In this document: positions 21,600 through 30,559 of the stretch, piece by piece
Layout: each line of letters starts with the position of its first letter
Numbering within the stretch: the stretch's first letter is position 1
From: Dehalococcoidia bacterium
GTDB lineage: Bacteria; Chloroflexota; Dehalococcoidia; UBA6926
Reading direction: 5' to 3'
DNA length: 64,000 nt
Assembly: GCA_963666115.2 (NCBI GenBank)
Contig: CAXXET010000008.1
Coordinates: 1 to 64,000, forward strand
Made by a program: the position numbers and the translations under genes
Notes under the pieces: generated by a model
The model's database searches: none
What the model was told of the DNA's origin: nothing
What the model saw: the letters and a program-made list of their open reading frames with translations, nothing else

Positions 21600-21676
21600 T
21601 GGTGGGGCATCCTGGACTCGAACCAGGGACCTCAGTCTTATCAGGACTGCGCTCTAACCACCTGAGCTAATGCCCC
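21600..21676 (-). tRNA. tRNA-Ile (GAT)
   Basis: GGGGCATTAGCTCAGGTGGTTAGAGCG-CAGTC CT GAT AA GACTG-...GGTTCGAGTCC...GCCCCACCA; full cloverleaf with encoded CCA. Confidence 0.97.
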
Positions 21677-24520: not shown

Positions 24521-24599
24521 GGTGGGTGTGGCCTAGCAGGTTTAAGGCACCAGGTTGTGGCCCTGGAGATCGTGGGTTCGAATCCCATCACCCACCCCA
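24521..24599 (+). tRNA. tRNA-His (GTG)
   Basis: G-1 plus GTGGGTG/CACCCAC acceptor stem, CCAGG TT GTG GC CCTGG anticodon arm, GGTTCGAATCC, C discriminator + CCA. Confidence 0.96.
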
Positions 24600-27102: not shown

Positions 27103-28365
27103 GTGCAATCTTCGCGTCTCATTGCGCTCTTGAATCAACAGCGAGCCGTCGTCTACGTCGGCATCGCAACGTTTTTGTTTACGCTTGGGCAGGGAATCGC
27201 CGTTCTCACCGCCGTCCCCCTTTACGGCGATGCGATTGGTCTGACGAGCACCCACATAGGGTTTGCCGTGTTTGCCTTTGCCCTTGCTCGTGTCCTTACC
27301 AATGTGCCCTCGGCAATGGTCTCAGACCGAATCGGCCGGCGCTGGATCCTGATTGCCGGCGCCTTGATCGCCGCGGCCGGGAATGTGCTCTCGGCATTCG
27401 CAGGCTCGCTCGTGGCCTTCATCATTTTCCGTTTTATCGCGGGCATCGGCTCCAGCGCTTTCATCACTGTCGGGATTGCCACCACGGTCGACCTCAGCAC
27501 TCCGGCCAATAGGGCCCGCCTTCTGAGTGTGTTTCAGTGGAGCTTCATTGCCGGCATCACGTTGGGGCCATTGGTTGGCGGCTTTGTTGCCCAATTCTTC
27601 GGAGTTCGCGTGCCATTCTACGTGGTCGGTCTCGTCGCAGTGATGAGTGCCCTGTGGACGATGCGAATGGTGACGGAAACACGTGGCCGCCAGGTGGCGC
27701 AAAGCTCAGTGAATCAGCCTCAGGCTGCGCCCTCGCCTGGGTTGAATCGCTACGCTTTCATGTTGAGCAGAGGCTACATACTGATCATGCTCATCTTCAT
27801 CGCTGCGTTTTTCGTCCGCGGCGGCGGGTATTTCACCCTGTTTCCCCTCATAGCCAAGAATGACCTGGGGTTGTCGGAGGGTTTCGTTGGCATCATGCAA
27901 ACCCTTCCCGCCATCGCATCTCTGGTCATTCTCCCATTCGTGGGAGCGCTATCCGATCGCTACGGTCGCAAGAAAGTCATCGTGCCAGGCATGGCGCTCT
28001 ACGTCATGTGTCTGGTCATCCTCGGCTACAGCGCGTCGGCGCTCCTCATCTCAGCAGCCGTCGTCTTTGGCATCGGCATCTTCGTTTTCGGCATCGCGCA
28101 GGGCATGGAAGGGCCTGTCCCCATCGCGTATGTGGCGGACGTCAGCCCAACGGACAGCCAGGCGACTGCGCAGGGCATGGCCAGGACGGTTGGCGATGTT
28201 GCCCTGATGGTTGGGGGGCCGCTGCTCGGTTTCGTGAGCGATACGTGGGGCAGCACGGAAGCGCTTTATGGGACAGCCGTTGTCGTGGGCGTCTTCATGC
28301 TCATCTTCTGGGTTTTCGCCCGCGAAACGGCAGGACGGCGCGTCCAGCAGGCCAATCGAGCCTGA
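27103..28365 (+). CDS. MFS transporter (DHA1-like)
   Basis: Motif A SDRIGRR and GALSDRYGRK, GITLGPLVGG; start GTG 27103 or TTG 27091 after AGGAG. Confidence 0.88.
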   Translation: MQSSRLIALLNQQRAVVYVGIATFLFTLGQGIAVLTAVPLYGDAIGLTSTHIGFAVFAFALARVLTNVPSAMVSDRIGRRWILIAGALIAAAGNVLSAFAGSLVAFIIFRFIAGIGSSAFITVGIATTVDLSTPANRARLLSVFQWSFIAGITLGPLVGGFVAQFFGVRVPFYVVGLVAVMSALWTMRMVTETRGRQVAQSSVNQPQAAPSPGLNRYAFMLSRGYILIMLIFIAAFFVRGGGYFTLFPLIAKNDLGLSEGFVGIMQTLPAIASLVILPFVGALSDRYGRKKVIVPGMALYVMCLVILGYSASALLISAAVVFGIGIFVFGIAQGMEGPVPIAYVADVSPTDSQATAQGMARTVGDVALMVGGPLLGFVSDTWGSTEALYGTAVVVGVFMLIFWVFARETAGRRVQQANRA

Positions 28366-28383
28366 CGGCGAGCCGCAAAAATC

Positions 28384-28413
28384 TTGTACGCCTGACCGCG
28401 CGTTTGCTATCAT
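28384..28413 (+). promoter_or_regulatory. Candidate sigma70 promoter of the speD-like/speB operon
   Basis: TTGTAC-18 nt-TATCAT with extended -10 TGn. Confidence 0.5.
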
Positions 28414-28416
28414 CGT

Positions 28417-28515
28417 TGTCGGCTATAGCGACATGCTGCGCCCGGGTGGGGATCGGGCGGTAGCCAAACTCACATCCCCCGTGGTCGAAACGACGACCGC
28501 GATTCTTTTTTGTTT
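28417..28515 (+). promoter_or_regulatory. Structured 5' leader: H-type pseudoknot followed by terminator-like hairpin (candidate riboswitch/attenuator)
   Basis: S1 CGCCCG(28439-44)/CGGGCG(28454-59); S2 GGGGAT(28448-53)/ATCCCC(28474-79); 8-bp hairpin 28480-87/28494-501 followed by ATTCTTTTTTGTTT; RBS GGAGG next. Confidence 0.55.
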
Positions 28516-28531
28516 GGAGGAAAACCCGCAG

Positions 28532-28927
28532 ATGCACCTTGTCATGGATGGGTACGGGGCTGACGCCCACAGGCTGCAGGACGAGTCGCTCGTCCGCGAG
28601 CTGCTGGACACCTACCCCGATGCCATCGGGATGACCAAGATCTCCGAGCCGCTGGTGCATCGGTACACGAACGGAAAGATACCCGTGGATTGGGGCGTGT
28701 CCGGCTTTGTCCTCATCGCCGAAAGCCACATCAGCGTGCATACGTTTCCCGACCGGGGCTACCTGAACGTGGACATCTTCTCCTGCAAGGCGTTTGACGC
28801 GGAGTTGGCCGTCGCCGAACTGCGCGGGCGCTTCGGCATCACGGACGTGAGGATGCAGGTGCTGGACCGCGGCCTCGAGGAGTTCCCGGACAAGCAGCCG
28901 GAGCGTGAACTGACCGCCGCGCCCTGA
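28532..28927 (+). CDS. speD: Pyruvoyl-dependent SpeD-family decarboxylase proenzyme (AdoMetDC or arginine decarboxylase)
   Basis: LIAE-SHISVHTFP self-cleavage motif, DIFSC; ATG 28532 after GGAGG. Confidence 0.85.
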   Translation: MHLVMDGYGADAHRLQDESLVRELLDTYPDAIGMTKISEPLVHRYTNGKIPVDWGVSGFVLIAESHISVHTFPDRGYLNVDIFSCKAFDAELAVAELRGRFGITDVRMQVLDRGLEEFPDKQPERELTAAP

Positions 28928-28936
28928 TTGACTCCG

Positions 28937-29845
28937 ATGACCGGCAGTTCCGACGGCGTCGCATTCCCCTGGAGCTTCGCGTCTCTCGACGGGGACGACG
29001 CCGATTTTGACAAGGCGGCGGTCGCCGTTCTTCCCGCGCCGTATGACGGAACCACGTCGTATCGAGCCGGCGCGCGTGACGGCCCCCGCGCCATCATCGA
29101 GGCGTCGCGCTACCTGGAACTCTATGAGCCTGATCTCGGCCTGGAGCCTTCACAGTGGGGCATCGCGACGCTGCCCGCGCTGGAGCCGGACGTGTCCTCC
29201 CCGGAGGCCAACATTGCCCGCGTGCAACAAGCGGTGGGTAATCTCGCCGACGCCGGCAAGCTGCCCGTGATACTGGGCGGCGAACACTCCCTCACACTCG
29301 GAGCGGTCCGCGCCCTCGCCCAACGGCATCCCGGCCTCTCTGTCCTCCAGCTCGATGCCCACGCGGACATGCGTGACAGCTACCAGGGCAGCGCATACAG
29401 CCACGCCTGCGTCATGCGCCGTGTTCGGGAGGAGCTAAGCGCGGGGGGCGGCGCAGTTGTGCAGGCCGGGATTCGCAGCATTAGCCGCGAGGAGATGGAG
29501 CACATTCAGGATGCCGGGGGCGCAGGCGTGCATCTGTACGCGCCCGGCCAATACAACGACCCCGCCGCAATTGACGAACTGCTGGCGGGGCTGGGCGAAA
29601 ACCTCTATGTGACGGTGGACCTCGATGCTCTGGACCCGTCGATCATGCCCGCCGTCGGCACGCCGGAGCCGGGCGGGCTTTCATGGCAGGAAACGCTGAG
29701 CATCCTGCGAACCGCAGCCCAACGCTCGCGCATCATCGGCTGTGACGTCATGGAACTCGCCCCGAATGAGGGGCCCGCCCATGCCTCATTCACCGCCGCG
29801 CGGCTCACGTACAAGCTGATCGGCTACGCGCTAGCGAAACGCTAG
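28937..29845 (+). CDS. speB: Agmatinase (ureohydrolase family)
   Basis: PYDGTTSYRAGARDGP, GGEHS, DAHAD, SHAC, DLDALDP, GTPEPGG, ELAP motifs. Confidence 0.92.
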   Translation: MTGSSDGVAFPWSFASLDGDDADFDKAAVAVLPAPYDGTTSYRAGARDGPRAIIEASRYLELYEPDLGLEPSQWGIATLPALEPDVSSPEANIARVQQAVGNLADAGKLPVILGGEHSLTLGAVRALAQRHPGLSVLQLDAHADMRDSYQGSAYSHACVMRRVREELSAGGGAVVQAGIRSISREEMEHIQDAGGAGVHLYAPGQYNDPAAIDELLAGLGENLYVTVDLDALDPSIMPAVGTPEPGGLSWQETLSILRTAAQRSRIIGCDVMELAPNEGPAHASFTAARLTYKLIGYALAKR

Positions 29846-29902: not shown

Positions 29903-30559
29903 TTACCCGGCGCTCGCCAGCGTAACCAACTCGTCCTCGTTCAGGGACTTCTCCGCTGTGTCCGCGCCGTTGCCGTTGCCGTTCTCATGGCCGTTCGTCC
30001 GGGCGCGGCGCTTCCTGGAGCCGTTGCCGTTGGAGGCCGCGGTGCGCGCGCCGAGGTAGCGCAGGCCGTTCTCGATGGCCCCGCGCAGCTCCATCGCCTC
30101 ACCGTGAAGCTCCTGGATATTCTGCGTGACCTGGTCCAGGTTGTTCAGCAGGCGCTCAAGCGACTGCGCGGCATACACGTCGGAGTCCTTGATGAGGCGC
30201 GCGGCATCGCTCTCGATGCGCTGCTTCATCTTCTCCGCCTCACGCTCGGCCTCCGCGCGAATCTGCTCCGCCGCCTCCTCCGCCTCTTCGACGATGGCGC
30301 TCTGCTGAATCGCCTGGCGGTGGTCTTGCTCCGTCTTGGCCTTCATCTTCTTGGCAAAGACATAGGCCTCGTTGACGATCGATTCGCCGCGCTCGCGGAT
30401 TTCCTCTGCCTCGCGGAACTCGGCCGGAGCCGTCGCGCGCATCCGATCGATCAGCCGCGCCAACTCCTCGCGATCCAACATGACCCGTCCGGTGCCCGGA
30501 ACGCGGCGGGCGTCTTCCGCCATGTCCTCCAGGGCATCGATCATTTCAAGGAACTGCAT
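29903..30559 (-). CDS. Coiled-coil protein of the type commonly found downstream of coaD (DivIVA/SepIVA-like)
   Basis: IDALEDMAEDARRVPGTGRVMLDREE N-terminus, long Ala/Glu helix, rsmD-coaD context. Confidence 0.7.
   Translation of the reverse strand: MQFLEMIDALEDMAEDARRVPGTGRVMLDREELARLIDRMRATAPAEFREAEEIRERGESIVNEAYVFAKKMKAKTEQDHRQAIQQSAIVEEAEEAAEQIRAEAEREAEKMKQRIESDAARLIKDSDVYAAQSLERLLNNLDQVTQNIQELHGEAMELRGAIENGLRYLGARTAASNGNGSRKRRARTNGHENGNGNGADTAEKSLNEDELVTLASAG

Follow-up and report, generated by a model that had tools for sequence, protein, structure and literature searches.

A structured leader of a speD-like–speB operon in one genus of Dehalococcoidia, tentatively read as an orphan riboswitch

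We analyzed a 64,000-nt stretch of Dehalococcoidia DNA (hereafter, the window), in which the DNA between a promoter and the ribosome-binding site of a speD-like–speB gene pair had been described, in an earlier note made from the sequence alone, as an H-type pseudoknot followed by a switchable terminator. The locus raises the question of whether this leader is a genuine RNA element and, if so, which fold it takes, how widely it occurs, and what it might sense or control. We address these points through the genes that it precedes, the alignment of its relatives, its distribution among genomes, and its likeness to known regulatory RNAs.

The operon and its promoter

The first gene of the pair (28532–28927, forward strand) encodes a SpeD/SpeH-family pyruvoyl decarboxylase (PF02675, 100.6 bits) that retains the AESHIS self-processing site; its start codon is at 28532 rather than at 28533. 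It is followed directly by an agmatinase gene, speB (28928–29845, forward strand; TIGR01230, 221 bits), delimited here by its longest frame, the true start of which may lie a few codons later. The two genes lie side by side in 106 of the 138 locus rows examined, some of which are duplicates of the same places, and speB directly follows the speD-like gene at all 20 loci carrying the motif described below. A second SpeD paralogue, 34% identical, is found outside the window directly upstream of spermidine synthase (speE), and the two copies differ in their match to TIGR03330, with 135.6 bits for the speE-adjacent paralogue in comparison with 79 bits (cut-off 75.65) for the copy in the window. The sole PF02784 protein of the genome is LysA, and searches of the genome, which is rated 100% complete, gave no homologue of PF01276, PF01862, or deoxyhypusine synthase.

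In the parts of their article used here, Li et al. (PMC10407285) predict SpeD homologues encoded beside speB to be arginine decarboxylases and show this in one case. Looking for the features that those parts give for such enzymes (SpeDA), we found the SpeD fold with its processing site, clustering with speB, a canonical speD-speE elsewhere, and no canonical arginine or ornithine decarboxylase. The speD-like gene is thus probably a SpeD-derived arginine decarboxylase rather than an AdoMet decarboxylase, and the operon, likely leading from arginine through agmatine to putrescine, most likely makes putrescine by means of arginine decarboxylase and agmatinase. With this assignment, the likely ligands of a sensor at this position shift from SAM and dcSAM to arginine, agmatine, putrescine, and spermidine.

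The neighbors of the operon are an MFS transporter and a coiled-coil protein. At 29903–30559 on the reverse strand, convergent with speB, the window encodes a 218-residue, coiled-coil-like protein rich in Glu, Ala, and Arg, for which no Pfam family was found and which the Scy polar-growth model matches weakly (21.4 bits against a cut-off of 1040). Outside the window, the canonical speD-speE pair of the source genome (G000) is preceded by a unit of ~140 nt (contig C6:545545–545720; L152:600–771). It combines a TTGACA-N17-TAGAGT promoter with complementary pyrimidine-rich and G-rich segments and a strong terminator hairpin of 17 bp. All 22 genomes of the genus have the unit, at 72–92% identity, and it matches no Rfam family. 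In some genomes (e.g., G005, G006, G008, G009, G014, and G021), it lies ~0.3 to 3.8 kb from speD, and it therefore looks like an independent small RNA gene.

Upstream of the operon, 20 genomes, the source genome included, align across the whole leader, the length of which varies between 113 and 133 nt among relatives and argues that the leader is not coding. A promoter had been placed at 28384–28413. Both of its hexamers are kept in the 20 genomes, the −35-like TTGTAC (28384–28389, forward strand) appearing as TCTTGTC or TCTTGTA in relatives and the extended −10 element TGCTATCAT (28405–28413, forward strand) being conserved among the 20 aligned upstream regions, whereas the 18-nt spacer between them varies freely; a consensus promoter scan, on the other hand, called no sites at the locus. 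The form TTTGCTAT(C/T)AT is found in 18 of the 20 aligned leaders, with L017 and L018 as variants. From this promoter, the 5′ end of the transcript is predicted at about 28420–28421, exactly at the first helix of the fold (P1). The Shine–Dalgarno sequence GGAGG lies at 28516–28520 (forward strand), where the ribosome-binding site had been located. In one relative (L018:1873–2005, minus strand), a longer AU-rich insert with a perfect TATAAT replaces the U tract after the terminator-like hairpin P4, and this TATAAT might give the operon a second promoter located downstream of the fold.

A leader peptide starting from the ATG at 28433 was considered and rejected, as relatives have TTG at this position or lack the codon altogether and differ among themselves in frame. 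In the source genome, the ATG shares its frame with the speD-like gene, with no stop codon in between, and automatic annotation could add 33 residues to the speD-like protein across the RNA element (28433–28531).

The fold of the leader and its conservation

Both stems of the pseudoknot proposed in the earlier note were found as it had placed them, S1 pairing CGCCCG (28439–28444) with CGGGCG (28454–28459) and S2 pairing GGGGAU (28448–28453) with AUCCCC (28474–28479), with an L1 of 3 nt and an L2 of zero. Among 3,000 dinucleotide-preserving shuffles of 28417–28531, seven contained such an H-type pair of 6-bp Watson–Crick stems. The segment taken as a free third loop has to be redrawn, since it carries UAGCC (28461–28465), the 3′ strand of an outer helix. 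According to the alignment of relatives, the core is a three-way junction of helices P1, P2, and P3, of which P3 corresponds to S1, with single nucleotides as joints, and S2 adds a pseudoknot between the loop of P3 and a C run 3′ of P1. All these features are on the forward strand. P1 is formed by GGCUA (28421–28425) and UAGCC (columns 8–12 with 48–52 of alignment A1; 95.8% of cells paired), P2 is the hairpin AGC-GACAU-GCU (28427–28437), and P3 (28439–28459; 97.4% of cells paired) encloses the G-rich loop GGUGGGGAU, which contains the 5′ strand of the pseudoknot. The G run and the C run are paired in 96.8% of cells. An A/C-rich linker, AAACUCAC (28466–28473; consensus RRACWCAC), connects P1 to the 3′ strand of the pseudoknot, and the CAU preceding the C run is present in 20 of 20 sequences.

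Downstream of the core come P4, a GC-rich, terminator-like hairpin (28480–28501), and the U-rich tract AUUCUUUUUUGUUU (28502–28515). A further hairpin, predicted by both the RNAalifold consensus and the single-sequence fold, encloses the start codon (28524–28553) and pairs ACCCG (28524–28528) with UGGGU (28549–28553) and the AUG with a CAU; its columns are nearly invariant. The folding energy of the leader as a whole is ordinary (z = –1.40; 19 of 200 shuffles fold as well), and so are those of longer stretches (z = –0.20 and –0.80). Two long-range helices drawn by folding programs were rejected: CUGC(G)/(C)GCAG is contradicted by the covariation of P2 at column 24, and CGGGU/ACCCG just before the start codon has, by eye, a change with compensation in L018 and changes without it in L007, L017, and L020. 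A G-quadruplex is conceivable in the G-rich segment 28444–28461; L019 has two-G tracts only.

We studied covariation in 19 distinct sequences, all of one genus. In these, 95.5% of 494 cells pair, in comparison with 29–54% when the partners are slid. Several pairs vary: U–G, U–A, and C–G occur at pair 11–49 of P1; a change from A–U to G–C at pair 14–24 of P2, shared by six sequences that do not all group together on the operon tree; the series C–G, U–G, and U–A at pair 29–43 of P3; and, in P4, compensatory changes among G–C, G–U, and A–U at pairs 69–88 and 75–82 as well as stepwise variants at 73–84. By eye, L018 has a CUC/GAG hairpin at the position of P2, and the pseudoknot of L019, which aligners place out of register, is changed on both sides, pairing GGGAG with CUCCC. 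Changes on both sides were counted at three pairs (14–24, 69–88, and 75–82), and this more robust measure of covariation is not significant, being reached by 52 of 500 shuffles. Stems S1 and S2 are both kept in 20 genomes, with some compensatory change, and across the 19 sequences the covariation is suggestive of the fold, not proof of it. G–U pairs are frequent, with 17 of the 19 sequences having one at 11–49 and 16 of the 19 at 73–84. As such pairs are mismatches in a DNA palindrome, they indicate a strand-specific structure and point to RNA rather than to a palindrome in the DNA.

As a neutral yardstick, we used the mean pairwise identity of 0.70 at 41 fourfold sites. The RNA core is conserved above this level: identity reaches 0.90–0.97 in P1 (0.97 in its 3′ strand) and 0.96 in the C run that forms the 3′ strand of the pseudoknot; P3 has 0.82 in its 5′ strand, 0.92 in its 3′ strand, and 0.86 in its loop. 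The linker (columns 53–62) has an identity of 0.75, lower values are found in P2 and the P4 loop (both 0.67), the U-rich tail is at the neutral level (0.71), and just after the −10 element identity is 0.59. Conservation of silent positions continues into the gene. The first two 10-codon bins of the speD-like gene (28532–28591, forward strand) have third-position identities of 0.92 and 0.88, in comparison with 0.54–0.81 in its later bins, 0.45–0.77 in all 30 bins of speB, and values near 0.65 overall outside these codons, a pattern that points to RNA-level constraint extending ~60 nt into the coding sequence, to about 28590. The early codons of the speD-like gene hold a small GGGC-UGAC-GCCC hairpin (28557–28568).

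P4 and its U tract lie where the earlier note had seen an 8-bp hairpin and a U-rich stretch, and the terminator scan calls the hairpin too. In the source genome, P4 has the pattern of an intrinsic terminator (8 bp, –12.3 kcal/mol, and a run of six U), and termination is predicted. Such patterns are not enriched locally, with one found against 1.3 expected, and a scan over 60 kb of the window gave 46, where about 37 were expected. Among relatives, P4 reaches –11 to –16 kcal/mol in 13 of 20 leaders and is weak (–1.9 to –2.2 kcal/mol) in L002, L008, L009, and L013, the leaders of which are near-identical in sequence. In the 15 nt that follow the alignment column where P4 ends in the source genome, the source genome has 11 U residues, 17 relatives have 7–10, L018 has 6, and L019 has 4; the U tract is good only in the source genome and missing in L018 and L019.

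P4 does not overlap the junction domain. The complementarity behind the antiterminator suggested earlier does exist, but the best fold containing it has –18.5 kcal/mol against –35.3 kcal/mol with the terminator. The best alternative in relatives, found in L006, joins the P4 3′ strand by 9 bp to the P1 3′ strand and linker and reaches –32.9 against –39.1 kcal/mol; it is unavailable in the source genome. Neither of these alternatives covaries, and the terminator-compatible fold was the most stable in five of five sequences tested, by 6–17 kcal/mol. The consensus fold permits an extension of the pseudoknot by two pairs into the base of P4, which could, on this structural model, give ON logic of a kind found in fluoride riboswitches. 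Hairpins with U tracts also follow the TPP riboswitch (G000 C4:269019–269135; 58.2 bits) and the cobalamin riboswitch (G000 C3:87555–87740; 113 bits) of the source genome, both outside the window, indicating that such terminator platforms before the ribosome-binding site are in use in this organism.

Distribution among Dehalococcoidia

A covariance model built on the 64-nt core found one copy in the source genome and, across the Dehalococcoidia genus to which this genome belongs, strong matches (42–92 bits) in 20 of 22 genomes, each with a single copy. All 20 copies precede the speD-like–speB pair. Each of the 21 other genomes in the genus encodes a close orthologue of the speD-like protein, and the two genomes without the motif, G001 and G009, retain the promoter and the operon with different leaders. 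The model gave no strong match in six genomes of two sister genera, and in a class-wide sample of 151 genomes strong matches were confined to the genus. Matches of 21.6–23.6 bits were recorded in four other genomes of this sample, and the three of these matches that were retrieved lie within long open frames away from the operon. Among 59 further genome loci there were only two strong matches, both in records of the genus, and 28 further loci, 26 of them metagenome contigs, contained one near-identical copy. Weak hits outside the operon were dismissed as chance matches: one of 26 bits (L054) inside an MFS gene on the opposite strand, one of 20 bits (L055) overlapping the stop codon of a gene, and those at L156–L158 and L057–L059, which fall in long open frames and have neither speD nor speB in their neighborhood.

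Single-sequence folding did not recover the same fold in the leaders of G001, G009, or the sister genus g2. In other lineages of Dehalococcoidia, the leaders are unrelated and often much shorter, some being ~25–45 nt long with a homologous promoter. Many of these lineages (L097–L113 and L129–L140) carry AATGATATGCTA, likely an extended −10 element, and 17–19 nt further on the invariant TTGCCAAG, the pair of sites lying about 20–60 nt upstream of the speD-like start. This signature could serve the operon as an operator or as a short RNA element. Among the leaders L022–L025, those of the sister genus g2 retain GUGGGGGAC paired with an upstream GGCCUUCC, and in L025, from another family, a GUGGGGG...CCCCCAC hairpin precedes the gene. 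These pairings suggest that a G-run/C-run pairing near the ribosome-binding site of the operon may be older than the motif itself.

Interpretation and relation to known RNAs

The leader is a real, selected, structured, and strand-specific cis-regulatory element of one genus and one operon. The best single reading of its role, which we hold tentatively and with somewhat less than even confidence, is that of an orphan riboswitch; its transcript start, termination at P4, switching, and ligand are the parts of this reading that we infer. On such a reading, ~28421–28515 would act as a cis-acting structured 5′ leader of the arginine decarboxylase–agmatinase operon. Its sensor domain would be the tight P1–P2–P3 junction, locked by the pseudoknot between the P3 loop and the C run, and its output domain would comprise P4 with the U-rich tract, resembling an intrinsic terminator, and the hairpin burying the start codon. 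A small molecule of the arginine-to-polyamine route would stabilize the junction and pseudoknot, and the stabilized fold would set the share of transcripts passing P4 or the share translated. We lean toward an OFF switch driven by a product, whether putrescine, spermidine, or agmatine; in the other direction, arginine might drive an ON switch in which the pseudoknot is extended by two pairs into the base of P4. We consider doubtful the fuller claim of a new riboswitch class with a fold of its own, the three-way junction plus pseudoknot, that would sense putrescine, agmatine, or arginine, control the recently recognized SpeD-derived arginine decarboxylase route, and act on both termination and start-codon access. 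To our knowledge, no dedicated natural aptamer fold exists for any of these three compounds.

Everything that marks the leader as selected and structured fits equally well with its being read by a factor in trans that would control termination at P4 or the opening of the start-codon hairpin; such a factor might be a regulator that binds RNA, a pathway enzyme with autoregulation, or a small RNA. An outcome decided from outside also suits a leader with no competitive RNA-only alternative fold, and its narrow distribution counts in the same direction, lineage-restricted leaders being common in protein-mediated attenuation. We nevertheless regard such a factor as unlikely. The operon holds no candidate gene for it, its neighbors being the transporter and the coiled-coil protein already described, and a three-way junction and pseudoknot with invariant loop bases are more typical of metabolite aptamers. 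The small-RNA-like unit upstream of speD-speE was rejected as a trans-pairing partner of the leader, since 269 of 300 shuffles pair at least as well.

A leader that does not switch at all could stabilize the 5′ end of the mRNA, attenuate transcription at P4 to a fixed degree, or tune translation initiation. The terminator-compatible fold being always the most stable would agree with this, as would the conservation spanning the start codon region and the predicted start of the transcript exactly at P1, as with protective 5′ stem-loops. Three stems, a junction, and a pseudoknot with conserved unpaired bases are nonetheless elaborate for a stabilizer, it would be wasteful to keep a strong constitutive terminator between a promoter and the single operon behind it, and other lineages run the operon from a homologous promoter with the ~25–45-nt leaders noted above, so that we rate a static leader as distinctly unlikely. 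Conservation could also act on the DNA, through transcription-factor operators at the inverted repeats, or be a functionless by-product of recent common ancestry. The repeats lie just downstream of the promoter, a frequent position for repressors; the carriers are all close relatives; and the perfect TATAAT just after P4 in L018 makes a second start site conceivable. Both ideas are very improbable given that most stems hold G–U pairs, that pairs change with compensation, and that the core is far more conserved than the fourfold sites and the promoter spacer of the same genomes.

If the riboswitch reading is right and the leader binds a ligand, a second and unrelated polyamine-operon fold would show how RNA recognizes small polyamines or their precursors, and uncultured Dehalococcoidia would offer a regulatory handle on polyamine metabolism, with a regulator tied to the SpeD-derived arginine decarboxylase pathway. 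Should the leader turn out not to be a riboswitch, the locus is still a clear case of a genus-specific structured leader with constraint reaching into the coding sequence.

The impression that no known consensus is present agrees with the searches of Rfam 15 by cmscan, which gave no family match for the element. Over the whole window, only two tRNAs match (21603–21676, reverse strand, and 24522–24596, forward strand), and on 28300–28620, with E values up to 10, only ctRNA_pGA1 was reported, at the chance level of 20.6 bits against a threshold of 45. We found no described motif matching the element in literature searches or in two genome-wide motif surveys, their supplementary motif lists aside. 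The preQ1-I, SAM-II, and guanidine-III aptamers are small H-type pseudoknots, and the element resembles them in that a loop pairs with the 3′ tail, L1 is short and L2 zero, and an A/C-rich strand runs along the first stem. It differs from them in that its returning strand forms the outer helix P1 and, together with P2, makes a three-way junction; none of the three families scored in the cmscan of the element.

Closer in function are two leaders of polyamine genes. The spermidine riboswitch of Firmicutes is described, in the parts of Salvail et al. 2023 (PMC10853860) on which we draw, as a four-stem SAM-I variant that terminates polyamine genes as an OFF switch, with a narrow distribution of 13 reported examples; by the same account, it is the only natural polyamine-sensing riboswitch class validated, and it reuses the SAM-I fold. 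Judged by that account, the element shares with it a place in the 5′ leader of polyamine genes, a terminator or terminator-like hairpin downstream, and a narrow distribution, a likeness in function only, and differs in having three stems and another pseudoknot and in occurring in Dehalococcoidia. No SAM-clan family matched the element at E values up to 10. The odc1 motif of alpha-proteobacteria, as presented in the portions of Brewer et al. 2021 (PMC8632094) used here, consists of one long hairpin with a 5′ pseudoknot, has an unknown ligand, and contains a conserved upstream reading frame of 11 codons that starts with UUG and lies beside the main start codon. The element has no upstream frame of this type, indels of 1–2 nt shifting the frame between relatives, and its fold and host phylum are different and a terminator-like hairpin is added. 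As far as those portions go, both are nevertheless pseudoknotted leaders ahead of the first enzyme of putrescine synthesis, with the ribosome-binding site and start region within the conserved structure. The TPP and cobalamin riboswitches of the source genome belong to known families with known ligands, unlike the element, which matches no family, and yet they are built on the same plan: an aptamer or aptamer-like fold is followed by a GC-rich hairpin, a U tract (UUUGUUUUUUU or UGUUUUGUUG), and a ribosome-binding site.
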